IMG/VR virus record: IMGVR_UViG_3300050015_000397
Location: 1-48,984 of that record
From: a virus
Reading direction: 5' to 3' (one strand)
Length of the DNA: 48,984 bases
Shown here: positions 1-16,018 of the stretch, piece after piece
Position numbering within the stretch: the first letter of the stretch is position 1
Layout: each line of letters starts with the position of its first letter
Position numbers and translations under genes: made by a program
Notes under the pieces: generated by a model
The model's database searches: none
What the model saw: only the letters and a program-made list of their open reading frames with translations
Told to the model about the DNA's origin: nothing

Positions 1-127
1 CTGAAATGCTTAGAGTTATACAAACTTTCAAACCGACATACATCATTGCTGAAAACGTGCGTGGACTCCTTACTATCAACAACGGACTGGTATTCGAACA
101 AGTCTGCCTTGACCTGGAAGCCAGTGG
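1..127. repeat. Terminal overlap, identical to 48858-48984 (circular closure of the contig)
   Basis: Both ends compared base by base. The overlap lies in the middle of an ORF, so it is an assembly or circular-permutation overlap rather than a physical end repeat. Confidence 0.95.
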
Positions 128-608
128 CTACGAAGTCCAGCCGTTTATTATTCCAGCTGTTTCCGTCAACGCCCCGCACAGAAGAGATAGGCTCTGGTTT
201 ATTGCCTACAGCAAGAGTAAGCTCGGCGAACGGAGCCAGCCAGAACGAAGTGCGTTTGGGGAACCCCAAACGCCGACTGGAAACGGAGATAGCCTTACTG
301 CCGACACCCCGGGCGGGAAATCCAGGGAGCAGACCGAACGGCAAAGGGGGGAAGATTTTAGCCGAGGAGATTGGGAAGCCAACTGGCTTGAAGTTGCAAC
401 CGAGCTTTGTGGAGTGGATGATGGGTTACCCGTTGAATTGGTCGAATTTAAACTCACCAAATCCGGACACCGAGTTGAAAGATTAAAAAGTTTAGGAAAC
501 TCAATAGTGCCTCAGGTGGCTATAGAAATATTTAAAACTATAAAAACGGCTTCACAGGATGCCCCCCACAGCCCCGTAAAACTTCCCCCAGGGGATAATG
601 GTCGGTGA
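1..608 (+). CDS. DNA (cytosine-5)-methyltransferase, 3' part (same gene as 48527..48984)
   Basis: IIAENVRGL, APHRRDRLWFIAY, CGVDDGLP..RVERLKSLGNSIVPQVA (motif X-like); stop at 606-608. Confidence 0.9.
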   Translation, partial: EMLRVIQTFKPTYIIAENVRGLLTINNGLVFEQVCLDLEASGYEVQPFIIPAVSVNAPHRRDRLWFIAYSKSKLGERSQPERSAFGEPQTPTGNGDSLTADTPGGKSREQTERQRGEDFSRGDWEANWLEVATELCGVDDGLPVELVEFKLTKSGHRVERLKSLGNSIVPQVAIEIFKTIKTASQDAPHSPVKLPPGDNGR

Positions 609-623
609 AAATAATTAATAAGA
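594..623 (+). repeat. 30-bp direct repeat at the 3' flank of the C5 methylase gene
   Basis: gataatggtcggtgaaaataattaataaga matches 48449-48479 with one extra g in the partner. Confidence 0.9.
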
Positions 624-634
624 GAGGAGATGGG

Positions 635-832
635 ATGATTAAAGATTTACCTGAAGGACAGACGCATAGCCAGCAAGACGGATGTGGAGATATTGACCAC
701 AATGAGTGGTGCGGCGGATGTGGCAAATTATTAAGACGCTATGTACCAACATTAAATAGTAAATGGGACGGACATAGCTACTGGTGCAAGTGCCATAAAT
801 GGCCTAAAGGGTATGTAGTGAGTATAGGATAA
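635..832 (+). CDS. Small Cys/His-rich protein (65 aa)
   Basis: ATG 635 preceded by GAGGAG. The track ORF starts at GTG 605, inside the repeat. Contains CGD..H..WCGGCG..WCKCH. Confidence 0.6.
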   Translation: MIKDLPEGQTHSQQDGCGDIDHNEWCGGCGKLLRRYVPTLNSKWDGHSYWCKCHKWPKGYVVSIG

Positions 833-866
833 TTTATTAACGCCGCTTTGCGGCAGAAGGGAAAGT

Positions 867-1106
867 ATGCCAGGAAATTTTGTTTCAGAACGTAAAAAAA
901 TCTACGATTGGTTAAAAAAGCAGGGACTTGAGTTTACTGAAGCCCAACATGAAGAGATAAAAGCCTTGTTGTTAGAGTATACTGAACGGATAAGTACAGA
1001 ACTTAAACAGCAAATAAAAAGTTATCAGAACCATTTAGTTCAGTGTGAACTTTATAAGAATAGAGTTAATAGAAAAAAATCATTAACCGGTATGAAAAAA
1101 GTATGA
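867..1106 (+). CDS. Hypothetical protein (79 aa)
   Basis: ORF with GGGAAAG upstream; 4-nt overlap with the next gene. Confidence 0.65.
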   Translation: MPGNFVSERKKIYDWLKKQGLEFTEAQHEEIKALLLEYTERISTELKQQIKSYQNHLVQCELYKNRVNRKKSLTGMKKV

Positions 1107-1591
1107 ACAAAACCTTTGACGGTTATTTAATATATGTTGACGACAGATTTGTTTTCGCGGCAACAAGTTTAGTAGACGCGGAAGCGGCAGTGGCAAGATT
1201 TAAAGTCGAACATCCAAAATCTAAAGTAGTTTATATTCCAAGAGAAATAGAGATGCCGAAGATGAAGCGTTACATTGTCCCGTGCTTACAACATTACCCA
1301 GGCTACGAATTAACCTGTGCCGTAGATTTAGAAGACCTGGAAATGGAAACTTACCCGTGGAGTAACTGTAAGTTAGACTTAATAAGGGCAGAAGAATGTC
1401 CTGAAGATGAAGATACCTTTAGGAAAGTAACTAATAAATTCTTCTCGGAGTTTGTACACCGGGCAGATAGAAAAACTTATAAGGGACTAACGAACATTGA
1501 GCATTGTTATGGTTGCGGCACAGTTCAAAACTTTAAAGGATATTGTATAGTTTGTAAATCTGAAAAAGACGAAAAAAGACCCAGAGATTAA
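1103..1591 (+). CDS. Hypothetical protein with C-terminal CxxC..CxxC zinc ribbon (162 aa)
   Basis: ATGA overlap with the upstream gene; HCYGCG...CIVCK. Confidence 0.7.
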   Translation: MNKTFDGYLIYVDDRFVFAATSLVDAEAAVARFKVEHPKSKVVYIPREIEMPKMKRYIVPCLQHYPGYELTCAVDLEDLEMETYPWSNCKLDLIRAEECPEDEDTFRKVTNKFFSEFVHRADRKTYKGLTNIEHCYGCGTVQNFKGYCIVCKSEKDEKRPRD

Positions 1592-1722
1592 TTCTCTAGG
1601 TCCTTTTCTTTTTCCTTATATGCGGCGGCCATGGCTCTTTGCCTTTCCCTGGATCTCTGCCGCTTGGCTTCTTTAAGTTCGGCTTTGTAGAGCGAGGCTA
1701 GGGCCGGGTCGTTCTGCTCCAT
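1588..1722 (-). CDS. Possible 44-aa K/E/R-rich ORF downstream of the helicase
   Basis: My own translation: MEQNDPALASLYKAELKEAKRQRSRERQRAMAAAYKEKEKDLEN. No clear SD. Confidence 0.25.
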   Translation of the reverse strand: MEQNDPALASLYKAELKEAKRQRSRERQRAMAAAYKEKEKDLEN

Positions 1723-1744
1723 AAAAACTAAAGCGGATAAATTT

Positions 1745-3148
1745 TTAGACATTGAGTAACTCCTTTAAGTCGTCTAAATTAAAGACGGCTTCATTAATAA
1801 TTTTCTTTTTTTCTAATATTTTAAGCATGTGTTCGTCTACGGTGTGTGCGGCCGCAATCGTGTAGCTGAAGGTAGGCTCAACTGTTGTCTGTCTGCGTAT
1901 GCGGCCGGATAGTTGCACATTACGGCCAATCGAGAAAGGTGTATCTAATCTGATTAAGTAAGAGGCTTCTTCGAAACTTAATGCTTCACTCCCGGCCGTG
2001 GAAAGGATAAGCACCCGGCAGTTCGGATCGGTCTTAAACCTCTTGCGGTTTTCTTCCGCGTCCATACCGCCTACAATATAGACCGGGTTATAATCTGCCA
2101 TTAGAGGTAATAGGGAGGGTAGAAGTCGGCGCGCAAACCAAGAGTAAACTATTAGCTTGCGAGTATTCCCGGCAAGGACTTCATCAACTTTATCTTTTAA
2201 TAGTTCCAGCTTAGTGGAGGGTATGCCGGAGTGACCGATAAGATCCGCGCTGTCTGTTAGCTCTGATAATTTCTGTAATTTTGTGAGGGCGTTCTGTAAA
2301 CTTATAGGATTTTTAACTAAATCAATGTGTACTGGATCGACTTCCAGTAATAGCTCGGCTCTTATGTCACTGTAGAGCTTAGATTCTTTCGGACTTAGCT
2401 CATATCTAATAGTTTCGTCAATATGCGGCGGCATTTGAGGGCAGACTTCCTGTAGGGTTCTATGGATAATATACGGCTTGATAATTTCTCCAAGCTTAGA
2501 AAGTTTAGAAGTGCGCGCGCCTAAAATGTAACCAAAGGTCGGATGTTTATACATATACTCATTTACAAAATATAAATAGTTTGGGAATAATTCCGGGCGC
2601 AAAATATTAAAAATTCCGAAAATATCCATCGGCGAATTCATTAAAATCGTGGCAGTAGTGCCGTACATTCTCGGCCGCGGAAAACCCTGTTGCTTATAGT
2701 AAGCCAAAAGCTTGCGTAAGTTCTTATGGGTTTTTGTAGTGGTAGAGCAAAGCTTGTGAATCTCGTCAAAGATAATAGTCTGAAATGCCGGCAGGCCGGC
2801 AATAATACCGGCGTCGATCCTTAATTGATCGTATGTGAGCAAAATTAAGCCTTTATTCTCCAAATAGGCTTTTTTACGCTGTCCTGGAGTGCCAAAAATG
2901 ACCACAGGCGCTAGTTCCGGCCTAAAGGCCTGTATCTCATCGGCGTACTGGAATAATGCCTTTTTGGGCATAATTATTAGCGTACGGCCGGATATTAAAC
3001 TGATCCCGATACAGGATTTGCCAATTCCCGGCTCTCCATTGTGAATACAGTTACCGATAGAGGACATAAGGTCGCTGTCGGTTTTTTGGAAGGGTTTTGG
3101 AGTTTTGGTTGGTTGAATATTTTGCATAGATTTGCCGGCAGTATGCAT
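1745..3148 (-). CDS. SNF2/DEAD-like helicase
   Basis: GEPGIGKS (motif I), FDEIHKL (motif II), LILSTAGSEALSFEEAS..SGRIRR (motifs V-VI). First ATG is at 3148; the track start 3187 is GTG; another ATG at 3127. Confidence 0.85.
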   Translation of the reverse strand: MHTAGKSMQNIQPTKTPKPFQKTDSDLMSSIGNCIHNGEPGIGKSCIGISLISGRTLIIMPKKALFQYADEIQAFRPELAPVVIFGTPGQRKKAYLENKGLILLTYDQLRIDAGIIAGLPAFQTIIFDEIHKLCSTTTKTHKNLRKLLAYYKQQGFPRPRMYGTTATILMNSPMDIFGIFNILRPELFPNYLYFVNEYMYKHPTFGYILGARTSKLSKLGEIIKPYIIHRTLQEVCPQMPPHIDETIRYELSPKESKLYSDIRAELLLEVDPVHIDLVKNPISLQNALTKLQKLSELTDSADLIGHSGIPSTKLELLKDKVDEVLAGNTRKLIVYSWFARRLLPSLLPLMADYNPVYIVGGMDAEENRKRFKTDPNCRVLILSTAGSEALSFEEASYLIRLDTPFSIGRNVQLSGRIRRQTTVEPTFSYTIAAAHTVDEHMLKILEKKKIINEAVFNLDDLKELLNV

Positions 3149-3161
3149 AGATTTGCCGGCA
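3123..3161. repeat. 21-bp tandem duplication in the helicase 5' end
   Basis: tgcatagatttgccggca occurs twice (3123-3140 and 3144-3161), giving AGKSMHT/AGKSMQN. Confidence 0.85.
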
Positions 3162-3173
3162 AGAGAATACAAA

Positions 3174-3434
3174 TTACTTAAAATCACTAGTCGCGGCCAC
3201 GTTATTAGCGTGGATTAAGTCTTGAGCTTCCTGTAAGTCCGTAAGACAGACGGCGCGCGTGTTCCATAAGTCCAGATAAGACTCGGCGCGCTTGTTGATT
3301 ATAGGTTGCTGAAACGAGTAGTTATGCGTTACTGTCCGATAGAGCAAAAACGAGAGGACGACAATAATTAAGTATAGATACTTATGTCTACGCACGGACG
3401 AGAGCCAGTGCTTGAAACTTTGCCATTTAGTCAT
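3174..3434 (-). CDS. Small membrane protein (86 aa)
   Basis: One hydrophobic helix, YLYLIIVVLSFLLY. Confidence 0.65.
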   Translation of the reverse strand: MTKWQSFKHWLSSVRRHKYLYLIIVVLSFLLYRTVTHNYSFQQPIINKRAESYLDLWNTRAVCLTDLQEAQDLIHANNVAATSDFK

Positions 3435-3511
3435 TTTTGTTTTGATTTCTCCGTAAGATTAGCCTCACGGCGCGGGGCTTCCTGCAAGGCAGAAGGCCGG
3501 GCGCGGGGGGG

Positions 3512-3763
3512 TTAAACTGGTTCGTAAGTTTTTTCAAATATGTCGGGCTTGCAGGGGTAGAATTCGCCTGCCACGCCCTTGATAATCCAGTCATTGGCTC
3601 TTGCTCCGATATTGCCTTCAAGGGTTCTGATTTCAATAAAACACTCATCCATTGAAGTTCTGTCCATAATGTTTTCATCTCCAATAAAAATCAAACATTC
3701 TTCCCAAGTGGCTATGGTTAGTGACATTGCTTCAATAACTACTGGTTTTTTTCTAAATTTCAT
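3512..3763 (-). CDS. Small phage protein, PGDYG-like family (83 aa)
   Basis: Start taken at MKFRKKPVVIEA. C-terminal signature NDWIIKGVAGEFYPCKPDIFEKTYE. Family name recalled from memory. Confidence 0.65.
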   Translation of the reverse strand: MKFRKKPVVIEAMSLTIATWEECLIFIGDENIMDRTSMDECFIEIRTLEGNIGARANDWIIKGVAGEFYPCKPDIFEKTYEPV

Positions 3764-3836
3764 AAACTTAAACTTTCTCCAGAGCTTTAGCACTCCGGCT
3801 ATTGCCCACTCATTCGGGCGGGCAAGGGCGGGGGGA

Positions 3837-4175
3837 CTAAGAAGCTTTACTATGCCATTCATCAGTATTTACAAACTTTTCTTTTAAACACTTATCACAA
3901 TAATAACTATTTTGTCTTTCAGCAGGTCTAATACCATTATTCCAGTATTCACCTTTATAAACCCAATGATGTTCACACACATGCTCTAATTCTTCAAAGT
4001 ATTTATCTAATCCTTTAGCTATTTCTTCTTCACCTGGGGTCATTGTATATTCTTGACCATTAGTGGGTTGTCCATTTTCATCGGTTATTTTAGTTACTTG
4101 ATTTTCCATAGCTTCAAGATTCCCAATACTAAATTCTGGTTCTTTGCCTGGAAACAACATTCCTTTAATTTCCAT
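3837..4175 (-). CDS. Hypothetical Cys/His-containing protein (112 aa)
   Basis: ORF preceded by AAAGGAAAAAT-ATG. Confidence 0.7.
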   Translation of the reverse strand: MEIKGMLFPGKEPEFSIGNLEAMENQVTKITDENGQPTNGQEYTMTPGEEEIAKGLDKYFEELEHVCEHHWVYKGEYWNNGIRPAERQNSYYCDKCLKEKFVNTDEWHSKAS

Positions 4176-4459
4176 ATTTTTCCTTTAGGTGGACGATGAG
4201 TATGTCGTCTTTAATTATTTACTCACGGCTAATGTCAATTTCTTGCTTCGGTTTAACCCATTAGGGCTGATGTTGGTGTTAATAGTCGCCTCTTACGAGG
4301 TAAATCCGGTTTACTCCGGCACCACACCAGCCCATAACAGGCAAGGGAATACTATATGCTCCATCCGCCTAGGCGGAGCGGAGAAAACTTGCGTGATGTC
4401 TTTATCACAGAGCACACAAGCCCGGGCCGGCAACGAAGTTATCGGCGGGGGTTTGGGGG

Positions 4460-4639
4460 CTAAAAATAATCATTCTCTATTTTAGCTTTAACTAATTTTG
4501 CCGTTATATGGTCGTATAAACTACGCGCTTCCGAATTGCTTTGGGTATTGCCTACAGAAAAATACCATAATTCCATACTTAAATTAGTGCCCCTAAACTT
4601 TTCCTTTTCAGCATAAAACTTTATTTCTTTTTCGGTCAT
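4460..4639 (-). CDS. Hypothetical protein (59 aa), below the track cutoff
   Basis: My own translation: MTEKEIKFYAEKEKFRGTNLSMELWYFSVGNTQSNSEARSLYDHITAKLVKAKIENDYF. Confidence 0.5.
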   Translation of the reverse strand: MTEKEIKFYAEKEKFRGTNLSMELWYFSVGNTQSNSEARSLYDHITAKLVKAKIENDYF

Positions 4640-4689
4640 ACAATTTATTGTTAATGTTTAATCTCTTAAAGTAGCGGCTGGAGGGTTAG

Positions 4690-4863
4690 TTATTTTATAG
4701 TTAAAACTGCGTCTTTGGTTATATCACCGTCAATGCGGACAATATATTTTGTTTCATCGTTTATAACACCTTCTTTCCCACTTTTGCCATTATGTTTCCA
4801 CGGGATAAATTTATCCATTAAGTATTCTGCTCCACCGTCTGTCTTGTGATAGTATAATTTCAT
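4690..4863 (-). CDS. Hypothetical protein (57 aa), below the track cutoff
   Basis: My own translation: MKLYYHKTDGGAEYLMDKFIPWKHNGKSGKEGVINDETKYIVRIDGDITKDAVLTIK. Preceded by TATAAAGGAAATATAT-ATG. Confidence 0.6.
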   Translation of the reverse strand: MKLYYHKTDGGAEYLMDKFIPWKHNGKSGKEGVINDETKYIVRIDGDITKDAVLTIK

Positions 4864-4951
4864 ATATATTTCCTTTATATTCCAGCCGTTGCCTTAAGAG
4901 GCTAACGGGGTTGTGTTATCACCCCTCGGAATAAACGGGCGGCGTGGTTGA

Positions 4952-5287
4952 TTAAAATTGTTTAACTGCTGATATTTGTAACAAGAAGTTTTCAAGCTCC
5001 GTATTATAACCGTCATCCGATGTAAAAGTATCAAAGTTTATTTTTGCGGCTTTAATAGATTTCTCAACTACTTCACGGGTTAAATGCATAGCGTCTTTAC
5101 ACGATTGGCAATAAGTTGAGTATTCTGTGCATGTGCAATTATTGGGCTTTACTAAATCTATGTTAGCGTGAACCCAGTTGCAAGCCGTTCCAGTTCCTTT
5201 AGTAACCGATATTTTAACAGGGCGATTTTTAAAAAGAGTCCTTAAAATCGTCCTTACTTTTTTGGCGTTTTCTATTGTGGTATTCAT
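4952..5287 (-). CDS. Hypothetical Cys-rich protein (111 aa)
   Basis: ORF preceded by AAAAGGGAAATTAT-ATG. Confidence 0.7.
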   Translation of the reverse strand: MNTTIENAKKVRTILRTLFKNRPVKISVTKGTGTACNWVHANIDLVKPNNCTCTEYSTYCQSCKDAMHLTREVVEKSIKAAKINFDTFTSDDGYNTELENFLLQISAVKQF

Positions 5288-5380
5288 ATAATTTCCCTTT
5301 TATGTTTATGCCTCCCGCTTATGCCGGTAGGCGATAACACTTGTATTTTGCAAGCCTAACAAAGAGCGGGGCGGTTAAGA

Positions 5381-5563
5381 TTATAATAATCCCAAACTCT
5401 TTAAAAATATTCTATATTGTGTCTTACTTTTAAATTCTTTTATCGTTTCGTCAGTTACTACATCACGAGCGAAATAAAGCGGTACACTTACATAACTTTC
5501 GCCAGCACGATTCCGGCGATATATAATAATTTTATCGCTTGTAAACATTCTAGTTAATACCAT
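5381..5563 (-). CDS. Hypothetical protein (60 aa)
   Basis: ORF preceded by ATAAAGGGAGTAAATAT-ATG. Confidence 0.6.
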   Translation of the reverse strand: MVLTRMFTSDKIIIYRRNRAGESYVSVPLYFARDVVTDETIKEFKSKTQYRIFLKSLGLL

Positions 5564-5643
5564 ATATTTACTCCCTTTATGCCCTGCTCTTTACAAGGCT
5601 TGCAAGATACTGCCCTAGCGTTTCAGCAAGGGGCTTTTTACCG

Positions 5644-6081
5644 TTATACGGTGATTTCACTTGCTCGGAATAGTTTTTCTATTGGCCAATTTTTCCTATA
5701 ACGCTTTAAAAGCGTAAAATATGGCAGATTAAACTCTTTTGCCCATTCTGATAGGCATTGAGTTTTGCTATTAAAAGCAATTAGAATATTATTAGTTTTA
5801 TTTTTGCCTTGTTCTCGGAGTGTTGACCATTTGCAATTAGCTTTTGAGTAATTGCCCGCGTTTTTTATTCTGTCTATTGATGTTTGGGTTTCGCCGTATT
5901 TTTCAATATGCAATAAATAACTTTTATACATATCATTTTTAAACTCGGCAAAACTTGGCCATTCAACGCGTATACCTTTATCACCATAATGCGGATATTG
6001 AACGGCGTTTTTGTTATTGCAACGCGTTAGCATACAATGCCATATCCGATAAAATCGGGTATTATATAGGCCGTGCTTCAT
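5644..6081 (-). CDS. AP2/homing-endonuclease-associated DNA-binding-like protein (145 aa)
   Basis: YRIWHCMLTRCNN..YPHYGDKGIRV..W..F..F..DM ... SIDRI.NAGNYS..NC.W signature, recalled from phage AP2-type proteins. Confidence 0.6.
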   Translation of the reverse strand: MKHGLYNTRFYRIWHCMLTRCNNKNAVQYPHYGDKGIRVEWPSFAEFKNDMYKSYLLHIEKYGETQTSIDRIKNAGNYSKANCKWSTLREQGKNKTNNILIAFNSKTQCLSEWAKEFNLPYFTLLKRYRKNWPIEKLFRASEITV

Positions 6082-6207
6082 AAAAAAATAGTATTCTGTC
6101 CGCGTTATAGTTGGCCTACAACACAGACATAATACTATTTACCAGACGGCCAACATCTGATAAATAGAGTATAGCACAGAAAACCTATTCTAAGCAAGTG
6201 ATATTTT

Positions 6208-6232
6208 TTATACAGAGCAAGGCAAGGCGGAC
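6208..6232. repeat. Left arm of a 25-bp inverted repeat bracketing a two-gene cassette
   Basis: ttatacagagcaaggcaaggcggac matches the reverse complement of 6705-6730 at 21/25. Confidence 0.75.
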
Positions 6233-6249
6233 GATTATAGATTAAATCT

Positions 6250-6429
6250 CTATTCCCATTTTTTATTTTTTATCCCGTACAAGTCCTTTAAAAGTAATAT
6301 TTTATGATTAGAATAATAAGTATAATCAATACTATTTTTAAGGGGGTCAAGATGGTCTAGTTTATCATAGATAATTTTAAGTTTCCTATTGATACTATCT
6401 ATTGCCTGTTGTCTAGTTTCTTTTATCAT
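6250..6429 (-). CDS. Hypothetical protein (59 aa), below the track cutoff
   Basis: My own translation: MIKETRQQAIDSINRKLKIIYDKLDHLDPLKNSIDYTYYSNHKILLLKDLYGIKNKKWE. Starts 5 nt after the upstream stop. Confidence 0.5.
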   Translation of the reverse strand: MIKETRQQAIDSINRKLKIIYDKLDHLDPLKNSIDYTYYSNHKILLLKDLYGIKNKKWE

Positions 6430-6433
6430 TGGA

Positions 6434-6685
6434 TTAAATTTTAAATACGAAACTATCTTTATCCGCTATGCAAAAGGTTTCAATGGCTAGTTTTTTATTC
6501 TGCATATGGATTTTAGCGTTGCGTAAGCTGTCCATAAGTCCGCGACCGTATTGATAAGTCTTTCCGGCGATAAAGATTTCAAGTTCATTATCTGATAAAC
6601 TTTTTAACGCTTGGATAGAATTAGGAATGTTCCGGCACTTATCGGCAATAATATTATATTGGGCAATTAGTTGTTTCTCGTTCAT
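6434..6685 (-). CDS. Hypothetical protein (83 aa)
   Basis: ORF preceded by TATAAAGGAAATATAACTAT-ATG. Confidence 0.65.
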   Translation of the reverse strand: MNEKQLIAQYNIIADKCRNIPNSIQALKSLSDNELEIFIAGKTYQYGRGLMDSLRNAKIHMQNKKLAIETFCIADKDSFVFKI

Positions 6686-6704
6686 ATAGTTATATTTCCT
6701 TTAT

Positions 6705-6730
6705 ATCCGCCTTGCTATACTCTGTATAAG
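6705..6730. repeat. Right arm of the inverted repeat (partner of 6208-6232)
   Basis: atccgccttgctatactctgtataag. Confidence 0.75.
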
Positions 6731-6799
6731 TTTTTAAAGAACTGTTTAACCGTTTAATGATAACGGCGGGGTTATTGCTTTAATAGGCTATAACTTGTC

Positions 6800-6835
6800 C
6801 GCGTCCGCCGGCAAACTTTTACCGGCAAGGCGGAC
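6800..6835. promoter_or_regulatory. Palindrome/hairpin GTCCGCC-GGCAAAC TT TTACCGGC-AAGGCGGAC (operator or terminator candidate)
   Basis: Core gccggcaaacttttaccggc pairs at 8/10 positions and is flanked by gtccgcc/ggcggac. T7 run at 6843-6849. Similar half-sites ccggcaaac at 6940 and tttaccggc at 6881. Confidence 0.45.
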
Positions 6836-6838
6836 AAA

Positions 6839-7009
6839 CTAATTTTTTTGATAGTGGTTAATAATTACCTTTAGAGGAAGTTTACCGGCAGAGCGTAAAC
6901 AAGAAAATGTATTCGCGGCGATGTGATGATGTTCCGCGTTCCGGCAAACTTTACCTTGAGTATATTCGCGTTCTAGTTGGAGGGCGCGGATATGTTTTTC
7001 ATATGTCAT
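6839..7009 (-). CDS. Possible 56-aa ORF in the regulatory region
   Basis: My own translation: MTYEKHIRALQLEREYTQGKVCRNAEHHHIAANTFSCLRSAGKLPLKVIINHYQKN. No SD seen. Confidence 0.3.
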   Translation of the reverse strand: MTYEKHIRALQLEREYTQGKVCRNAEHHHIAANTFSCLRSAGKLPLKVIINHYQKN

Positions 7010-7180
7010 TTTGTTTGGTTTTTAATAATCTTAAATACATTATAATCCTTATTTTAACAGTTGTCAATAGCGTGGCAGGGCTAAAACTGGCTAAACTGTG
7101 GATAACTGGAAAATAAAGGCGTTAATAAAGGGAAAAATATTACTTGTGGCTTGAATAAGGAAAAAGTATATAGCCAGTTA

Positions 7181-7204
7181 TATCTTGTAGGATATCTTGT
7201 AGGA
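7181..7204. repeat. Perfect 12-bp tandem repeat tatcttgtagga x2
   Basis: Read directly; embedded in a run of GATATA-like motifs (7190-7245). Confidence 0.9.
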
Positions 7205-7453
7205 TATAACAGAGTATATAACGAGTGATATAGGATAGATATAATCAAAAAATGATAAAATGAGATAAAATAAAAGAATTATACGATAAAAGGGTAAAAA
7301 AGTCAAATCTAAAAGGCTTGAATAAGCAAAATATGTTATAATAAATATACAAAAATTGCATAATAAGTATATCAAAGTAAAAAAAGAAAGTAATTTCAAT
7401 TATTATAATGTACTACTGGCAATTTTCAGGGCTTCAGGTAATGTTATGCTACC

Positions 7454-7524
7454 TTATTGGTAACTATCATACTATGATTAGTCTATTGGCTATGCCTATT
7501 GGCTTATATAAGCTTATCTATTGG
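7454..7524. repeat. Four copies of YTATTGG (iteron or arm-site candidates)
   Basis: Copies start at 7454, 7483, 7496 and 7518. Confidence 0.7.
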
Positions 7525-7742
7525 TTGTATAGTGTATATACTATGCAACACAGAGCGCGCGCCCTGTATTTTTGGCGATAGCACCCCCAGGGGAGGGGGA
7601 CGCGCGACTAAAGGAGAAATAATTGACCCCCCACCCCCCATAGTATTAATTTTTCAAGGTCCCTGGTTAAATCCTATAGGCCGCCCTGCAATTTAAAAGC
7701 CGCCTACGTCAAAGTAGTCGGCTATAAATTTTTCTACGCGCC

Positions 7743-8504
7743 TTACCCCGTTTTTTGCTTCTGCTGGCATTTCGTCCACACCTCCCTTAATCGATTATCG
7801 GTAACGTGCGTGTAAATCATTGTCGTCTGGATGTTGCTATGTCCCAGCATCCGTTGTATCTCCGGTAACGCCGCGCCACTGTTTAGCATATTAACTGAAA
7901 ATGTATGCCTAAGCATGTGCGGCCACACTCTTTTTGTTATTCCATTTCTCTCGGCCAGCTTTTTCAGCCTTCTCTGCACCATTACTACGCTCCACGGCTT
8001 TCCAAACAGTAATCCCGGCTTTAACCTTGCAAGCGTCTCGGGACCAACAATTATCATTCGTTGTTTTCCACCCTTTCCCACTAGAGTCATTTCTGACTTT
8101 ACTTCACTATTCTCCCTCCGGCTAATTTCAGCCAGTTCCCCTACTCTTACTCCGGTGTCCAAAATAAACATTAACACTGTTCTAAATTCTCCATCTGCTG
8201 CATCCAGTATTTTTTTTACTTCCTCTTCACTAAGAAAATTTACCTGCGCTCTTTTTTCCTTCAACCGATCGTAGGTTAGTCTCTCTCCAAATTTATATTT
8301 ATAAAATGTTCCAATGGTGGTTATGTGAAGATTAACGCTTCTGTTTCCCAGGCCCGATTTCAGTAATTCGTTCTGGTAACTCTGCACCCAGTCACTTCCT
8401 TTCGGTATTCCTCCTTCACCACACCACGACATAAATCGTCTTAAAACCTCTCTGTAGGTTTGTTTGGTTTTGTCGGACAACTGCTTGTTTATGAATTGCT
8501 CCAT
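7743..8504 (-). CDS. int: Tyrosine recombinase/integrase (XerC/D-like)
   Basis: HMLRHTFS (HxxR) and LGHSNIQTTMIYTHV (catalytic Tyr). Start taken at MEQFINK with AAAGGAG 5 nt upstream; the track start 8567 is unlikely. Confidence 0.9.
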   Translation of the reverse strand: MEQFINKQLSDKTKQTYREVLRRFMSWCGEGGIPKGSDWVQSYQNELLKSGLGNRSVNLHITTIGTFYKYKFGERLTYDRLKEKRAQVNFLSEEEVKKILDAADGEFRTVLMFILDTGVRVGELAEISRRENSEVKSEMTLVGKGGKQRMIIVGPETLARLKPGLLFGKPWSVVMVQRRLKKLAERNGITKRVWPHMLRHTFSVNMLNSGAALPEIQRMLGHSNIQTTMIYTHVTDNRLREVWTKCQQKQKTG

Positions 8505-8537
8505 ATACTCCTTTCTAATTTTACTATTATTACTAAT

Positions 8538-8567
8538 ATGGTAGCATAGTATTAAAAGATATGTCAA
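8538..8567 (-). promoter_or_regulatory. Candidate integrase promoter TTGACA-18-TACCAT
   Basis: Reverse complement of tgtcaa (8562-8567) and atggta (8538-8543). Confidence 0.45.
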
Positions 8568-8583
8568 CTGTGTATAACTTTGG

Positions 8584-8612
8584 TTGACTTTAGATATACC
8601 CTGCTATATAAT
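8584..8612 (+). promoter_or_regulatory. Near-consensus sigma70-type promoter TTGACT-17-TATAAT
   Basis: -35 at 8584-8589, -10 at 8607-8612. The ATG at 8622 is only 9 nt past the -10 box, so the mRNA would be leaderless. Confidence 0.7.
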
Positions 8613-8621
8613 TAAGTTACT

Positions 8622-9113
8622 ATGAAAAATAACTTAAACGAAAAACTTATTAAGAAGCTTTTTTCTCTCCATCCCGTAAAGCACCAGGAGATTATTAACC
8701 ATTTTATCGAAGAGGGTCGGCACACCTCAGAGTCTGATGTTGTTCGGTCTGCTTTGATTTTTTATCATGATAAGGTTTATCCTAATTACATTTATCACCT
8801 CACTCCTGCCGGTAACGAAAAGAAAGAAAAAATTGAATCCAAGGCACGGCTTGAATCCATGTCCCCCGAGGACTTCGCCACCCAGGAATGTAAAGCCCTT
8901 GTCCGTGATGGAATGGCAATTATGTATAATATTGTTTCCACTGATTCATATTTTGTTATTCCTCTAAAGGAAATTAAGGAATGGGCAACCTCATACCCCG
9001 GCTGGTTAGCCGAACACAAACAAAAGGCCCGTAAAGAACCTATGGACGAAACTTTCGTCGCCGTGCACTTAGGTCGTAAGGTTGAGTTCCATGAAAACAA
9101 GGCTGTGATATAA
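8622..9113 (+). CDS. Hypothetical protein, possible N-terminal ribbon-helix-helix regulator (163 aa)
   Basis: SESDVVRSALIFYH resembles the RHH helix pattern. No SD; probably leaderless. Confidence 0.6.
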   Translation: MKNNLNEKLIKKLFSLHPVKHQEIINHFIEEGRHTSESDVVRSALIFYHDKVYPNYIYHLTPAGNEKKEKIESKARLESMSPEDFATQECKALVRDGMAIMYNIVSTDSYFVIPLKEIKEWATSYPGWLAEHKQKARKEPMDETFVAVHLGRKVEFHENKAVI

Positions 9114-9120
9114 TTACTTC

Positions 9121-9465
9121 ATGAAGAAGTCTCCCACTAACGAAACCACTAATGCCATACTCGATTTTTTGTTCCGGGCCAGAATTTTTTCCTTTAGGCA
9201 AAACATCTCTGGCATACCTGTTCCAGGAGGAGGGTTTCGTCCATCAGGAAAACGCGGACAACCAGACATCGTGGGAATACTGCCCCCTTCAGGGCGCTTT
9301 CTGGGCATTGAAGTTAAAACCGGCAAAGATCGACTTTCCCCAGAGCAAATTGGTTTTCACAAAAATTCCCGAGACGCCGGCGCTTTGATCCTCGTCGTCC
9401 ACGATTTTAATGACTTTTTAACCCAATGGAATAACATTTATGGCCTACCCGAAAAAACTGCCTGA
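9121..9465 (+). CDS. VRR-NUC / PD-(D/E)xK nuclease-like protein (114 aa)
   Basis: GQPDIVGIL ... FLGIEVKTGKDRLSPEQ..F (PD...ExK pattern). Confidence 0.7.
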   Translation: MKKSPTNETTNAILDFLFRARIFSFRQNISGIPVPGGGFRPSGKRGQPDIVGILPPSGRFLGIEVKTGKDRLSPEQIGFHKNSRDAGALILVVHDFNDFLTQWNNIYGLPEKTA

Positions 9466-9751
9466 CGACCCGATGTCCGCCGCTAAAAAGCTGGCGGATC
9501 GTTATCCTGACGGTTACTTCAACCGCTTCTCCGATAAGCCTTTCGACGAAGTAATCGCGGAACTTGCGAATGAAGAAAAGGGGTTGATTGCTACCGCGAT
9601 AATAAACTCGATAAAATTAACAGGCGACGCTTCGAGCTTTAAGATCCTACAGGCTTCACTTGAACGGCAGGGTTTTAGCACTGAGAAAGAATTACCAATA
9701 ACTGATGAGCGATATTTCGAAATTGTTAAAGTATTTGCCTCCAGAAACTGA
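9440..9751 (+). CDS. Hypothetical protein in the small-terminase position (103 aa)
   Basis: Position immediately upstream of and overlapping terL. Start uncertain; an alternative ATG is at 9473. Confidence 0.5.
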   Translation: MAYPKKLPDDPMSAAKKLADRYPDGYFNRFSDKPFDEVIAELANEEKGLIATAIINSIKLTGDASSFKILQASLERQGFSTEKELPITDERYFEIVKVFASRN

Positions 9752-11270
9752 GCTACCTGTCGGTTTTTCTGACGAGCGCCTGCTCCGCTGGATGTGTCAG
9801 CGGTCTTTTCTGGCATTTTGTATGGCAGTTAAGCCCGATTTTCTACCTACAAAGTTCCACATCTACCTGGCCGATAAGTTCCAGCAGATTTATGAAGATA
9901 CAAAGAAAGGAATTGACCGGCGCTATATTATTGCCTGCCCCCCACAGCTCGGTAAGTCCACGATTACAACACAGTTATTCCCCGCGTGGGTTTTAGGCCG
10001 TGAAAATTGGCCTGTTATTTGCGCTTCTTACTCAGCGGATCTTGCGGAGAGAAACTCAATGTTTTGCCGGGAATTTTTAAACTCCGATACATATAAAATT
10101 ATATTTCCCCGTGTTCGTTTAAATCCTGATTCCACCAGTAAATCCTACTGGCAGACGAATAGGGGCGGCGCTTACCGCGCAGTTGGTACTATGGGGGGGT
10201 TAACAGGGTATTCAGGCCGTTTGCTCCTGGCAGACGATTTGCTTTCTTCGCAAGCTGACGCAGAATCCGCGACTATTTCTGATGGTGTTTGGAGCTGGTT
10301 TAAGACAGTATTTTACACTCGTAAACAGTCTAAAAGCGCTATGGTTTTAATTGCCACGCGCTGGTCTCTTAATGATCCTACGGGCCGTCTCATCGATCAG
10401 CAACACATGTACGAGGGAATGAATCTGCCTGCTGGTAGTTATGATAAATGGGATTATTTATCGTTCCCGGCCATTGCGGAGTCTGATGAAGATTTTGGTG
10501 ATGGCTGGACCCGTAAGGCCGGGGAAGTAATTTGTCCGGAGCGTTTTACTCTGGAGGACATGGTTAAGACACGAAACTCCCTAGTTTCTGAAGGCAAGGT
10601 GCAAGAGTGGTCATCGTTGTATCAACAGGAGCCTATTTTGCAGGAGAATGCCGAATTTAAAAATGAGTGGTTCCGTTATTTTGAAGAAAAAGATATAGCC
10701 ACAAAAGAATTATCTTACCTGACCCTGGTCGACCTTGCTATTTCGAAAGCGAAAGAGGCGGATAATACTGTCGTTCGAACTATTGCGGTAGAACGCAACA
10801 CGGGCTACTGGTATCTGATGGAAGAGACTGCCGGACACCTTGATCCTTTGGAGACCGTGGATGCGATATTTTTTCACGCTAAAACTTACCGCTCTCACGT
10901 CTGGATTGAATCTGTTGCATATCAGGCGGCGCTACCTAAGTTTATACTGGAAAAACAGCGTAAAGACAGGGTTTATTTTAATGTTGATGAGCTAAAGCAT
11001 GCTAAGGGAAAGAGTAAGGAAGCGCGCATCCGGGGGCTTATTCCTAGGTATAAGGCCGGGACAATTTTCCATAGGCGTTCTGATACGGCTTTGCAGGTTG
11101 AATTATTGCAGTTCCCCAAAGGCCGCCATGAGGATCGTGCGGACGCTTTAAGTTTTGCGCTTGAAGTTGCTGACGGTGCTATGCCATCCGAAACTCCCGA
11201 GCAGGTTAAGCGTCGCGAAAAAGAAGAAAAAGTCCAGTTTGATCCATTTGCAAGTATTAGTAAAATATAA
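9705..11270 (+). CDS. terL: Terminase large subunit
   Basis: Walker A CPPQLGKST, Walker B LLLADDL, then a C-terminal nuclease-like half. The size fits. Start could instead be at 9792. Confidence 0.85.
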   Translation: MSDISKLLKYLPPETELPVGFSDERLLRWMCQRSFLAFCMAVKPDFLPTKFHIYLADKFQQIYEDTKKGIDRRYIIACPPQLGKSTITTQLFPAWVLGRENWPVICASYSADLAERNSMFCREFLNSDTYKIIFPRVRLNPDSTSKSYWQTNRGGAYRAVGTMGGLTGYSGRLLLADDLLSSQADAESATISDGVWSWFKTVFYTRKQSKSAMVLIATRWSLNDPTGRLIDQQHMYEGMNLPAGSYDKWDYLSFPAIAESDEDFGDGWTRKAGEVICPERFTLEDMVKTRNSLVSEGKVQEWSSLYQQEPILQENAEFKNEWFRYFEEKDIATKELSYLTLVDLAISKAKEADNTVVRTIAVERNTGYWYLMEETAGHLDPLETVDAIFFHAKTYRSHVWIESVAYQAALPKFILEKQRKDRVYFNVDELKHAKGKSKEARIRGLIPRYKAGTIFHRRSDTALQVELLQFPKGRHEDRADALSFALEVADGAMPSETPEQVKRREKEEKVQFDPFASISKI

Positions 11271-11283
11271 AAAGTTATCAACA

Positions 11284-11312
11284 TTGACCTATAGGAAATT
11301 ATCTGTTATACT
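11284..11312 (+). promoter_or_regulatory. Candidate promoter TTGACC-17-TATACT
   Basis: Hexamers at 11284-11289 and 11307-11312, upstream of the portal gene. Confidence 0.5.
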
Positions 11313-11339
11313 TTATTTATATTAAGCCATCAAAATTAA

Positions 11340-13439
11340 ATGGCGTACGATTCGGCCCCAGCAACCGCTACGACTAATAAAGTCCCCAACACAGCCTTCG
11401 AGGCTACGTCTTTAGGTGCCTCGGGGGCTTATTTTATTGACCCCCCTGATTATTCTCCCGAAGAACAAGAACGCCGGCAACAGGAACTGGTGGAAATTAC
11501 CGCGGATTACAACCGGCGCGAATCACCGCATCGGCTTTTAAACCAGATGACTTACAGCCAGAACTATCGGACGAACATGCTGGCTGCGAATTCTGATACG
11601 CCCCCCCGCGCCAACGCGGAAGACACGCAGGTTGTTACCGGAACCACCCGGGAAAAAGTTTTAGCTATTGTTGCCGCCGTGCTTCAGTTAAACTTTGAAA
11701 CGAAGTTCATGGCTTTTGATAAAGATGATATGCAGGACGAAGAACTGGCCATGGCCATGACGGATTGTGTGGAACGCGCGAATAAAATGGAGCAGTGGGA
11801 TGAGAAAAAGATCTACGCTTATTTTGAAATGGCCACTCAGGGCGATGTTTACGTGGAAGAAAATTTTATTGACGAAACTTTAACGGATAAAAAGAAGATA
11901 AAGATTTCCGATCTGACCGAAGCCTTGATGAAAGATTACAAGGCGGATTATAAAACTAAAACTGTCCAGGGTATGTGCCAGCGCAATATTATTCCCGGCA
12001 CCCAGGTATACAAGGGCAGTATGACCGAGAGAATTTTACGCAACCAGCCCCACATTTGGACCCGGGAAGTTCGGCCTTATGAGGTCGTAAAATCAATCTA
12101 TGGCTCTTTGCCCAGATGGAAAAATGTCCCGCGACGGCTCGTAACTGTGGGGCCTGGTATTTCCGCTGATTACGCCACGGCTCTTAACTGGCGCTTGGAA
12201 ACTATTGATAACGAGCAGTGCGAGATTTTAAAACGCCAGGACAGGTTTAATGACGAGTATTCCCTTTATATAAACGGTGTAAAAATGCTTCCTAACGGTT
12301 TTCCTATGCCGTGGGAGTTCCAAGAATATAACCTTGTGCAAGGAAGTCTTGAGCCGATTTCCGCGTTCTTCTCCGAGAGTAAATCTATCCCCTGCAAAAC
12401 TAAACTTGACCAGGAAATTTTGGATGAAATGTATCGGCTGGCTGTGCTTAAGACCCAGAAGTCTTTTATGCCGCCCATTGCAAATTATTCCACAAACCTT
12501 TTGTCTCGCAGTATGTTCCTTCCGGGAAAAGTTACGAATAATTTACAGAAGGGTGAAGTGGAAGTGCTGGGAGGTAATCCGCAGATGTACGCGATGCAAC
12601 CATCTGAGTTTTCGATGATACAGATGATTAAGAAGTTTATTGACGAGAAGTCGATCTCCCCGGCTCTCGAAGGAAACCAGCAAGGTGGAGACCAGACTGC
12701 TACTGAGAATAACAACATCATGATGCAGGCGAAGCAGAAACTTGGCTTGATGATTTTTGGCTTTATAAACTTCCACATGCAACTTGATACGATTCGTCTT
12801 TATAATATTTTGGAAAATTATACTAAGCCTGTTGATACAAAATTAAATAAACTGAAGGACGGCGTAACGAATAAGTACCGCAGCATCTCCGTACAGAAGA
12901 CTATTGGTGATAAGGGTTTGGGTACCAGGCACGTTCAGTTTACTACCGAGCATAATTCACCGTCCGAACTTTGGGATATGGAGAATGGCGTAACGCGCGA
13001 TAAAAATGGAACTCCGACTTCGAATAACCCTCCTAAAAAACCCACACAGATTCTTCAGGTCAACCCTGAAGTTCTGCGTTCCTTAAAGTTTACATGGTTT
13101 GGACAGTGCGACCCGTCACAGCGTGAGACAACCCTCTCGGAAAAGATTTCTTTCGGTGATGACTTGGTACAGGCAGTTAATCTTTTCGGCCAGCAGAAAG
13201 TTAATCTTGATTATGCCGCGCAGAAATGGGCCGAACAGAGGAAGCTTGATCCTAACCTGTTCTTTAATCAGAACGCTCCTGCCGGCCAGCAGCCTCAACC
13301 GGGTGCTCCTGCTCCGGGCCAGCCCGGAGTTCCTGGGCAGACACCCCTACAGGAATCGAATCTTAAAAAACAGAGCAGGCCATTTTCCTCCGGAGCGGGT
13401 CCGGCCGAAGCGATGAGAGTTGGAAAGGGTGGAAGATAA
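11340..13439 (+). CDS. Portal protein (putative, 699 aa)
   Basis: Size and position directly after terL. Low-complexity Q/P/G tail. No motif recognised. Confidence 0.65.
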   Translation: MAYDSAPATATTNKVPNTAFEATSLGASGAYFIDPPDYSPEEQERRQQELVEITADYNRRESPHRLLNQMTYSQNYRTNMLAANSDTPPRANAEDTQVVTGTTREKVLAIVAAVLQLNFETKFMAFDKDDMQDEELAMAMTDCVERANKMEQWDEKKIYAYFEMATQGDVYVEENFIDETLTDKKKIKISDLTEALMKDYKADYKTKTVQGMCQRNIIPGTQVYKGSMTERILRNQPHIWTREVRPYEVVKSIYGSLPRWKNVPRRLVTVGPGISADYATALNWRLETIDNEQCEILKRQDRFNDEYSLYINGVKMLPNGFPMPWEFQEYNLVQGSLEPISAFFSESKSIPCKTKLDQEILDEMYRLAVLKTQKSFMPPIANYSTNLLSRSMFLPGKVTNNLQKGEVEVLGGNPQMYAMQPSEFSMIQMIKKFIDEKSISPALEGNQQGGDQTATENNNIMMQAKQKLGLMIFGFINFHMQLDTIRLYNILENYTKPVDTKLNKLKDGVTNKYRSISVQKTIGDKGLGTRHVQFTTEHNSPSELWDMENGVTRDKNGTPTSNNPPKKPTQILQVNPEVLRSLKFTWFGQCDPSQRETTLSEKISFGDDLVQAVNLFGQQKVNLDYAAQKWAEQRKLDPNLFFNQNAPAGQQPQPGAPAPGQPGVPGQTPLQESNLKKQSRPFSSGAGPAEAMRVGKGGR

Positions 13440-13442
13440 CCT

Positions 13443-13817
13443 ATGCCCAAAATCCTAAAAAATAACGAAGAGGTAGTTAAGCTTTACAGGGAGTTCCTTA
13501 AACTGGTTGACCCATATGACGCGAACATCACCCGGGATCTGGAAGGCGAGGAGTTAAAAGATTTTTACAAATACTGCCACGAAACTTTCCATAACCCGTT
13601 CTTTGGGAAAATTATTAACGGTTTTATCATGGAGCAGTGTTTAAAAACTGCAAACCAAGGATTGACTCCGGAACAGCAGACTAACGGCAAGTTAAGTATT
13701 AACGGAATCATGACTCTTGAGAACTTCTTTGCCCGCGCCGCTAATGAATATGATAAGTTGACTGCTAAGGGTGAGGAGTTTGACCCGCAGAAAGCATTTA
13801 ATCCAGCTAAGATTTAA
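13443..13817 (+). CDS. Hypothetical head-module protein (124 aa)
   Basis: ORF tightly packed after the portal gene. Confidence 0.7.
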   Translation: MPKILKNNEEVVKLYREFLKLVDPYDANITRDLEGEELKDFYKYCHETFHNPFFGKIINGFIMEQCLKTANQGLTPEQQTNGKLSINGIMTLENFFARAANEYDKLTAKGEEFDPQKAFNPAKI

Positions 13818-13902
13818 AAATTAATGTTTGTTTCTCGCTTTCGTGGAAAGTTGTAAGTCATGAATTATGACATCCACTGTAGGAAACGAACAAGAGGTAA
13901 GT

Positions 13903-14616
13903 ATGCCACAGAAAGTGACTATCGAAGGTGTGGAGACGGAAGTTTTCACCGCTGAAGAAGTTGCCGAGCAAGCCGAGGTAAAAGCTAAGGAATTAGCTGA
14001 TACCAAGGTAGCAGAAGAGACTGAACGTCTCAACACGGAGCATGAGAGTGCTCTGCTCGAGAAGGACGAAGCTCTTAAAGAAGCCCAGGAGAAGTTAGAT
14101 AAAGCTGCGGCCAAAGAGCTTAATTTTAAGGCTCTGAGGGAGAAGAACGAAAAGGGTTCTAAAGAAAAATCCGAGGAAGAGAAAAAAAACGCTGAGGATT
14201 TAAAGGCTCTACAGGAAACTGTACAAGCTATCCAGAAGCAACCCTTCGAGACCGCAAAATCCAGTTTTGTAAAACAGAATGTCGGTGTGGATAAGGAACT
14301 TGGGGAGAAGTTTGATTTCTTTTATAAGAAATTAAGCTCTGGAGTAAAGACCGTGGAAGAACAGCAAATAGCTCTTGAGTCAGCCATGACTCTGGCTACC
14401 GGCAAGCCTTACGAAGCCGGTTCCGGCAGAATGACCGGTGTATCGGTTGATCCGGGTTTCGGGGGAGAAAAAGGCAAACAAGAATCACAAGACTCTCAGA
14501 ACTTCGGTGCTTTGCTTGGTTTGACCGCGGAAGATAAAAAGAAGTTTGCTCCCGCGTTAGCTTCCAATACAGTTCCATTGTTCTATCAAACTCCTCCAAA
14601 GGAAAAGAATGTCTAA
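13903..14616 (+). CDS. Scaffolding protein (putative)
   Basis: E/K/A-rich coiled-coil composition, located between portal and capsid. ATG 13903 has GAGG upstream; the track start is 13867. Confidence 0.6.
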   Translation: MPQKVTIEGVETEVFTAEEVAEQAEVKAKELADTKVAEETERLNTEHESALLEKDEALKEAQEKLDKAAAKELNFKALREKNEKGSKEKSEEEKKNAEDLKALQETVQAIQKQPFETAKSSFVKQNVGVDKELGEKFDFFYKKLSSGVKTVEEQQIALESAMTLATGKPYEAGSGRMTGVSVDPGFGGEKGKQESQDSQNFGALLGLTAEDKKKFAPALASNTVPLFYQTPPKEKNV

Positions 14617-14863
14617 ATTAATTAATTATTTGAAAGGAAAATTTATGTCTGATGAAAATAATTTAGTCGAGCCAGTTGTGGCTCCTGAAGTTCCAGTAGC
14701 TGAGCCGGTTGTAGCTCCTGCTCTTGGTCCCGTAAAACTTTATTACCAGTCTAAGGAAGTAGTTAAGCGCACAGGCACTGTCGATGCTAATGGCGATGAA
14801 CTTTGTGAATTAGAAGACGGCTCTACGACCTATGTGCCGAAGTCCGTTTTAGGAGATAAATAA
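14609..14863 (+). CDS. Hypothetical protein (84 aa)
   Basis: AAGGAAAAGA-ATG context. An alternative start at 14645 also has AAGGAA upstream. Confidence 0.6.
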   Translation: MSKLINYLKGKFMSDENNLVEPVVAPEVPVAEPVVAPALGPVKLYYQSKEVVKRTGTVDANGDELCELEDGSTTYVPKSVLGDK

Positions 14864-14864
14864 T

Positions 14865-15419
14865 ATGGCTGAAGATATTAAATTGGAAGTTCCTCTGGTT
14901 ACTCCTATGGAAAAACCGGCCGCTCCTGTTATCGACCAAAAAACTCTTGCTTCTATTCTCGCGCGCATGGACGCGCAGGATGCGGAGTTAAAAACTCTAC
15001 GAAGTTCGGTTTCCCAGTCAAAATTGACTGAGGTGGAAAACAAGTTAAAAAAACCAGCTAACCCCACAGGTTTTTTAAAGGTATTTCGCGGTAAAGTTGT
15101 TGTAGGGTGGAAGAGCGAACAATCCGAACTTTTAAGGAACCCTGCTAACCCTGATTTCATTGTTGGGGAAGTATTAAAATGCCGTGCGTTTTTTATTGAT
15201 GGGGCTGACAGTGGAATTGTCGACCAGGTGGAGTTTACTCACGCGCTTACTGATAGACTTGAGGGTGAAGTTTTGGAAGGCTTAAAAGGTATACGGGATA
15301 ACGAGTTAAAGGAAGTTACTCTGCACTTCACTAAGTTGATTACTACGGATGAAGCATTGGCGGCAAGTTTTGTAATGCCTCCGGATTATAAAATTAATAA
15401 AAATTTCTTAAACCCTTAA
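14865..15419 (+). CDS. Hypothetical head-module protein (184 aa)
   Basis: ORF with tight packing. Confidence 0.7.
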   Translation: MAEDIKLEVPLVTPMEKPAAPVIDQKTLASILARMDAQDAELKTLRSSVSQSKLTEVENKLKKPANPTGFLKVFRGKVVVGWKSEQSELLRNPANPDFIVGEVLKCRAFFIDGADSGIVDQVEFTHALTDRLEGEVLEGLKGIRDNELKEVTLHFTKLITTDEALAASFVMPPDYKINKNFLNP

Positions 15420-15423
15420 TTCT

Positions 15424-15846
15424 ATGGATGAACAAACACCAGTAGAAGCCACTCCGGTGGCTGAAGTGCCCGTTGCGACGGATGTTTATGCCGGTTCAGT
15501 AAAGGTAACGCCGGTACAACTTGAAAATGGTTTAGTTGAAGTAGTTTTAGATAGCGAATTGGATGTCAGATTAAAAATGACTCCCGACCAATGGGAAACG
15601 GTTAAGAGTGATAAACCTTATCCTGATGGTGATGTCTCGCTTAGAAAATGGAACAAGACTATTGCCAGTGTAATTACACTTCTAGCTCAGGACAATGCCG
15701 AGCTTAACGATACTCCGTTTATTTTGGATCGTGCCGCTGACCGTATAGACGGCGCTTTAAAATCGGTTGTGGCAAAAACATTCGGTGTAAAAGAAAAAGA
15801 GAATATTACTATTAAGGCAATATTTGAAGAAGTTATAAAATCCTAA
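15424..15846 (+). CDS. Hypothetical head-module protein (140 aa)
   Basis: ORF with tight packing. Confidence 0.7.
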   Translation: MDEQTPVEATPVAEVPVATDVYAGSVKVTPVQLENGLVEVVLDSELDVRLKMTPDQWETVKSDKPYPDGDVSLRKWNKTIASVITLLAQDNAELNDTPFILDRAADRIDGALKSVVAKTFGVKEKENITIKAIFEEVIKS

Positions 15847-16018
15847 CCGGATAGTAGGGGATAAATTTTTGTCCCCCTCTACCCTGATCGGAGTAAAAAA
15901 TCACTCTCGCGCTTGGCATAGCGTTGTAAGCCTAAAAAGCATATACCGACTGGAATCGCCCCAGTATAACTAGGGTGTATTTTTAGTGCGACTTATTTAT
16001 AATTAAACCATTACTACA

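Follow-up and report, generated by a model that had tools for sequence, protein, structure and literature searches.

M.EcoHK31I (E. coli HK31, YGGCCR) is a C5 methyltransferase composed of two polypeptides, known from the work of Lee, Kam and Shaw 1995 and Fung et al. 2006 as told in PMC2836561 and PMC3404938. According to these accounts, the α chain includes motifs I-VIII and X together with a predicted recognition domain, and motif IX is found in the β chain, which is encoded wholly in another frame inside the α gene. Both chains are described as needed for activity, and they work when expressed from separate plasmids (PMC2836561, PMC3404938). M.AquI (CYCGRG) is described as a further two-subunit C5 methyltransferase, in which the smaller polypeptide supplies the C-terminal motifs (PMC3404938).

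A literature search for a nested arrangement of this kind across phages returned the M.EcoHK31I papers only. The classic gene within a gene in phages is the Rz/Rz1 spanin pair of phage lambda, which makes use of the +1 frame and yields products that cooperate. Compared with the locus described here, the proteins of that pair are unrelated, their function is lysis, and the overlap is much shorter.

The locus described here includes a C5 methyltransferase gene and, wholly inside it, a second gene in the +1 frame. Neither frame is interrupted by stops, the nested layout is conserved among relatives, and selection alternates between the two frames by region.

The nested locus and its two reading frames

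The window, i.e. the whole stretch of 48,984 bp that was analysed, is a complete phage genome according to IMG/VR (direct terminal repeats, 100% complete). The terminal direct repeat of 127 bp (1-127 = 48858-48984, unstranded, identical copies) lies inside the methylase gene, and the gene therefore wraps around the two ends of the record. The genome is probably circularly closed. The nearest DNA and protein matches of the record are Bacteroides and Porphyromonas phages, and we infer a Bacteroidota host. The nested pair is an orphan phage gene located in the replication module, where it adjoins a SNF2-type helicase, and no restriction enzyme was recognised among the neighbouring genes. A second DNA methyltransferase gene (45486-46241, + strand; phrog_67, 9.9e-53) is found ~2.3 kb upstream.

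Read across the terminal repeat, frame A encodes a chain of 312 aa, designated α, from an ATG at 48527 to a stop at 606-608. The 5' part of the gene (48527..48984, + strand) includes motif I (FSGIGGF, 48545-48565) and motif IV (FPCQ within GFPCQ, 48791-48802), and is continued at window position 128, since 1-127 repeats 48858-48984. The 3' part (3..608, + strand) includes motifs VI (ENV, 51-59), VIII (PHRRDR, 174-191) and X (GNSIVPQ, 495-515); it reads APHRRDRLWFIAY, followed by an R/E/G-rich stretch and then CGVDDGLP...RVERLKSLGNSIVPQVA. The occurrence of motifs I, IV, VI, VIII and X in this order, all within frame A, places α among the C5 methyltransferases. PF00145 matched α with 116.5 and 59.4 bits (profile positions 1-131 at E = 5.4e-35), and α matched phrog_363 at 4.8e-31. 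Neither motif IX nor a folded target-recognition domain was found between motifs VIII and X of α, and the match to PF00145 ends at profile position 177 of 324.

An AlphaFold2 model of an α chain 58% identical to that of the window (locus L005) gave a pLDDT above 90 for the core, 36-48 for the spacer between motifs VIII and X, and likewise less than 50 for the insert between motifs I and IV. Foldseek matched this model to the catalytic domain only of M.HhaI, M.HaeIII and DNMT1 over ~200 columns at E ~1e-11. As modelled, the α core shows the fold of a C5 methyltransferase.

In the +1 frame (frame B), 232 codons are free of stops from 48645 to 483. A chain of 223 aa, designated β, is encoded from the first ATG at 48672 to a stop at 484-486, so that β (48672..486) is wholly nested in α (48527..608). 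The 5' part of β (48672..48984, + strand; frame open from 48645) includes the module LIPTPTATDYK (48690-48722), which falls inside a lengthened loop between motifs I and IV of α. The 3' part (1..486, + strand) includes LLPTARVSS (199-225), LLPTPRAGN (295-321) and FVEWMMGYPLNW (406-441). LLPTPxAxD-type modules of β stand on both sides of the overlap with motifs IV-VIII. The bases that encode EWMMGYP in the +1 frame (412-432) are shared with those for GVDDGLP in frame A (411-431). The original prediction, which covered just the 3' two-thirds of both frames, had given all of its strings and coordinates correctly, including these shared bases. The open +1 frame on which it was built is real, but the extent of 146-161 codons assigned to it was too short, as the frame continues across the terminal repeat to 232 codons.

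The β ATG at 48672 is built from the α codons tAT-Gga (I-Y-G-D; window 48669-48674). An ATG formed at the same site by the last two bases of a Tyr or His codon and the G that follows was found in 26 of 59 aligned loci, and the α codon concerned was TAT in 26 and TAC in 11 of these 59. The start site of β varies among relatives, with ATGs further upstream in other loci. No Shine-Dalgarno-like sequence is present upstream of either the α or the β ATG, both upstream stretches being A/T-rich.

The expectation that the two frames would match methylase profiles was borne out for α by PF00145 and phrog_363. It was borne out in part for β, which belongs to phrog_1008 (2e-17; query window 1-483) and for which no family was found in Pfam or NCBIfam. 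Both phrog_363 and phrog_1008 are labelled 'DNA methyltransferase', and their partnership in the overlap is not recorded. A tblastn search of phage genomes with the 95-aa interval noted at first gave no match at 1e-3, a longer query being needed.

Conservation and selection in the two frames

Chance is excluded as the origin of the open +1 frame. When the codons of α were permuted, the longest +1 ORF had a mean of 71 and a maximum of 216 codons, and when the same α protein was resampled synonymously with the codon usage of the phage itself, the mean was 62 and the maximum 202; 232 codons were reached in none of 20,000 permutations and none of 20,000 resamplings. The longest ORF in the remaining forward frame at the locus is 25 codons.

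Among proteins about as long as β, 414 relatives were found (best 3.5e-71), and a further 389 are longer; Pfam domains are almost absent from these relatives. A profile search with β, which covered 1.84 billion representatives of 50% identity clusters, returned 37,108 cluster representatives at E <= 0.001 and 3,354 at E <= 1e-30. The +1 peptide is, as had been anticipated, a member of a conserved family.

Among 80 IMG/VR loci collected with the β profile, the nested pair was present in ~77, the α ORF including motifs I, IV, VI, VIII and X and the third frame being short. In only two of the 80 (L026 and L040), the match to α or to β was split over two frames by an apparent frame break. The same layout was found in four distant records, namely Porphyromonas phage BK068099, deep-sea phage KT997847, coliphage K1ind1 and mycobacteriophage SG4, each with a complete methylase in one frame and a +1 ORF of 200-230 codons that ends ...MMG[FY]P..W. 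The 'Mte8-like' ORF of K1ind1 is nested in the +1 frame of a C-specific methylase gene and matched phrog_1008 at 2.6e-54; what is named 'Mte8-like protein' in coliphages K1G, K1H and K1ind1 groups with β. On plasmids, β-like frames lie under genes annotated just as 'DNA cytosine methyltransferase'. In KT997847 (L002:1333-1471), motifs I and IV of α are in different frames, with the break at an A-run (KKIF versus KKNF), where either the frame is truly broken or the homopolymer was misread in sequencing; that record has three separate CDSs annotated over the methylase locus.

Codon-phase conservation was computed over 60 non-identical loci. At the N-terminus of α, the least conserved position is α position 3, i.e. 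frame A is the selected frame. The same holds for motifs IV-VIII, where frame A is under added constraint and the conservation of position 3 amounts to 0.65-0.70 over window 108-167. Over window 198-483 (+ strand), which holds LLPTARVSS and LLPTPRAGN, the least conserved position is α position 1, equal to β position 3, and frame B is the selected frame. After the β stop, at motif X, the least conserved position is again α position 3 and frame A is selected; this change of the wobble pattern around the β stop indicates that motif X belongs to α itself. In the conserved blocks of 198-483, amino-acid identity is 0.44-0.62 for β versus 0.26-0.51 for α. The apparent conservation of β in the region of motifs IV-VIII mostly tracks that of α, and the N-terminal half of β is kept open with weak conservation of the protein.

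Stops are depleted in both frames. Over 68 loci, none was found in the +1 frame from motif IV to motif VIII, compared with ~212 expected, and none in frame A from motif VIII to the β stop, compared with ~314 expected. It had been proposed that dual coding would be seen among homologues as a lack of +1 stops and as constraint on sites in the +1 frame, and both were observed: the first in the 68 loci, the second in the move of the wobble to β position 3 at 198-483 in the 60 aligned loci. Genuine dual coding, the first of the explanations originally offered, is upheld by an ORF of a length beyond chance, by conserved nesting and by frame-specific selection.

As judged by this pattern, GVDDGLP is a shadow of FVEWMMGYP of β and not a Dcm-type C-terminus. 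Frame A had been thought to include a complete C-terminus of the Dcm type; only motif X of it is selected in frame A, and GVDDGLP lies where frame B is selected.

The number of LLPTP modules per β ranges from 0 to ~12. Expanded forms (L060:1221-3017, L077, L072 and L050; proteins P0194, P0127 and P0212) include up to ~12 LLPTPxAxD modules, with β of 356-541 codons and α of 455-690 codons that is open throughout. In another relative (L021:944-1339; IMGVR_UViG_3300045919_000452), an HNH-type endonuclease ORF of 132 codons follows directly after the β stop in the same +1 frame. This ORF has a GTG start and the pattern CxxC...HH...CxxCH, and it lies inside α, downstream of the motif IX region and upstream of motif X; α of this locus has 449 aa and is not interrupted by stops over the ~130 inserted codons. 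Apparently, the methylase gene thus also houses, out of frame, what is likely a homing endonuclease. In P0139 (291 aa), a member of the β family, HNH_3 (PF13392) forms an in-frame insert between PSTR and EIGSGLLPT, at a site of β that overlaps motif VIII of α. PF00145 was found among the longer β homologues in P0200 and P0216 only, which start in frame A (motifs I-IV), continue in frame B and are without motifs VI-X of α. These two were considered as fused single-frame forms and rejected, being hybrids that miss the later α motifs and are probably deletions or frame errors.

Motif IX and the possible contribution of β

The best conserved part of the β family is a motif IX-like segment, LKLQPSFVEWMMGYPLNW (388..441, + strand), which lies just upstream of motif X of α at the canonical IX-X spacing. 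A joint sequence of 62 residues, consisting of the β tail and motif X of α, was compared with solved structures, and plant DRM C5 methyltransferases made up six of the seven matches at a weak E of 0.65-0.78. In the alignment with DRM, LQPSFVEWMMGYPLNW...RVERLKSLGNSIV was placed on LEPDEVEMLLGFPKNHT...RTDRYKSLGNSF, i.e. on motif IX and then motif X. The frame-A control from the same bases (375-563) retrieved no methylase among the solved structures, giving chance kinase matches only. The β tail alone (38 aa) found nothing among the solved-structure sequences, and profiles of full-length β and of the β tail found nothing in them even at E <= 10. When the β profile was aligned with E. coli Dcm by hhalign, the best segment, RRLTPRECARLMGF, coincided with motif IX of Dcm at a weak E of 0.22 and a probability below 1%. 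The concordant placement in three tests, each with weak statistics, suggests that the nested chain carries motif IX. The combination of LLPTP and EWMMG strings, taken at first as the signature of another class of C5 methylases, instead marks a nested second chain of the same class.

The LLPTPxAxDYK modules were presumed to be equivalent to a loop of Dcm, TRTLSARYYKDG, that is canonical for the recognition domain; a direct test did not support this. A position matrix derived from 104 modules ranked this loop third with a negative score, and the best window had a shuffle P of 0.42.

Modelled alone, β was mostly of low confidence (pLDDT 65.5, pTM 0.29), with one hairpin and the motif IX helix, and Foldseek gave no fold match for this model. 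The poor folding of the lone chain would fit, without proving it, a chain that folds on its partner.

The design of the locus matches that of M.EcoHK31I, as compared by published description. The α chain is of similar length (312 aa as against ~310 aa) and includes motifs I-VIII and X; the second ORF lies wholly inside it in another frame; a motif IX element is placed in β, here with weak statistics; and additional internal methionines in the β frame can serve as starts. The chains of M.EcoHK31I, as studied by Lee, Kam and Shaw in 1995, are reportedly of 309 aa (α) and 176 aa (β), and β of the present locus, with 223 aa, is longer. It differs further in its repeated modules of the LLPTPxAxD type before and after the IV-VIII overlap. 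Moreover, α of the phage is without a selected or confidently folded recognition region, whereas the M.EcoHK31I α chain is described with a predicted one, and the division of labour between the chains may differ from that in M.EcoHK31I. The present enzyme also differs in belonging to a phage, and none of the genes around it was recognised as a restriction enzyme. With M.AquI it would share the assembly from two polypeptides; out-of-frame nesting is not part of the description of that enzyme, and here motif X stays in α and β is nested.

A probable two-chain methyltransferase and alternative readings

The two genes, one lying entirely within the other, probably encode the two chains of a single DNA (cytosine-5) methyltransferase. 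In such an enzyme, α would provide the AdoMet-binding and catalytic core (motifs I, IV, VI and VIII) together with motif X, and its stretch between VIII and X, predicted to be disordered, would be just an unselected spacer. Translation of β would be a separate event, starting most likely at the ATG at 48672, and the last third of the chain would combine LLPTPxAxD-type modules with the motif IX-like helix. The β chain would bind to α and complete the small, DNA-facing part of the enzyme, so that methylation would need β, and target recognition would reside in β and not in α.

A broader version of this proposal is possible, though on balance doubtful. It holds that the whole DNA-reading half of the enzyme, i.e. 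target recognition and motif IX, is placed out of frame in β across this very large clade of phages, that the variable region of α is a spacer dictated by β, and that the copy number of the modules (0 to ~12) tunes or multiplies specificity. If this were true, textbooks would be wrong to assign the recognition domain of M.EcoHK31I-type enzymes to α, and a gene missed by most annotation pipelines would determine the specificity of phage methylases.

An unlikely alternative is that β is real and translated but acts independently of the methylase, perhaps in regulation, in anti-defence or as an accessory to replication, the gene serving as a mere coding scaffold. The lack of a detectable domain in β, the poor fold of its lone model, the wide variation in the number of LLPTP modules and the N-terminal half that is open yet weakly conserved as protein would all agree with a function of this kind. 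It is harder to reconcile with the ~77 of 80 loci in which β is found only within a C5-methylase gene, and with a conserved segment that stands at the IX-X spacing and retrieves C5 methylases once joined to motif X. The absence from α of a selected segment at the place of motif IX likewise speaks for a β that works with the methylase, and the precedent of M.EcoHK31I points the same way.

A single mosaic polypeptide, in which a +1 shift near 195-203 and a -1 return near 440-486 would produce the order α(I-VIII)-β(modules and IX)-α(X), would leave a region-wise selection map identical to that observed. The corresponding A-B-A construct scored 71 bits on PF00145 in two stretches versus 68.6 in one, a gain of 2.4 bits; against phage genomes, however, it scored below plain α, and these scores support neither a mosaic protein nor a relative with a single frame. 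Such a polypeptide needs neither an open β over ~140 codons upstream of the shift site nor an open α through the middle, but in 68 loci both frames are free of stops far beyond the supposed switch points, which contradicts the recoding event near 195-203 envisaged in the original prediction. Frame A of the window is open at 195-203, where no sign of a slippery site accompanied by a stop or rare codon was seen. Furthermore, α carries inserts that are meaningful in β only, such as the LIPTPTATDYK module, and is open across β frames of 400-540 codons elsewhere, and M.EcoHK31I functions as two chains from separate plasmids. A mosaic product is on these grounds very improbable.

It is also highly unlikely that the +1 frame is an untranslated by-product of constraint on α or on codon usage, or the decaying fossil of two compensating indels. 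The conservation of β in the region of motifs IV-VIII, which largely follows that of α, could be expected of a by-product, and because the IX-X spacing is canonical, the nested pair could plausibly have arisen from a gene once read in a single frame, through two frame changes that compensated each other. A by-product, however, was never produced at a length of 232 codons by synonymous resampling of α, and the wobble at β position 3 over 198-483 identifies β as the selected frame there. The α chain accepts inserts that are sensible only in β (LIPTPTATDYK, and those of the 400-540-codon forms), and relatives with +1 stops at ordinary frequency were not found. A dead fossil, as first suggested, is at odds with the openness of both frames past the switch points in the 68 loci. 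The last of the early suggestions, a conventional ORF broken up by a pair of indels from assembly or sequencing, can be dismissed, as dozens of independent contigs show the same layout, as do isolate phages from different laboratories and sequencing platforms, the openness of the two frames recurs in 68 independent loci, and frame A is open from end to end and requires no indel.

The locus is real and is a further example of the M.EcoHK31I-type design, not a new principle, and the window adds a clean and complete example of the nested pair. In the literature searched, one enzyme only has been characterised despite the size of the β family. For cloning, recoding or specificity prediction of a phage methylase of this type, the +1 frame must stay intact. 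Over these loci, annotation of the RefSeq style gives α only, and other records name β 'methyltransferase', 'hypothetical' or 'Mte8-like'; with β omitted or mislabelled in this way, the genes of thousands of phage genomes are listed incorrectly. Given the 37,108 representatives, the nested pair may be one of the most frequent in phages among long gene pairs that overlap on the same strand.
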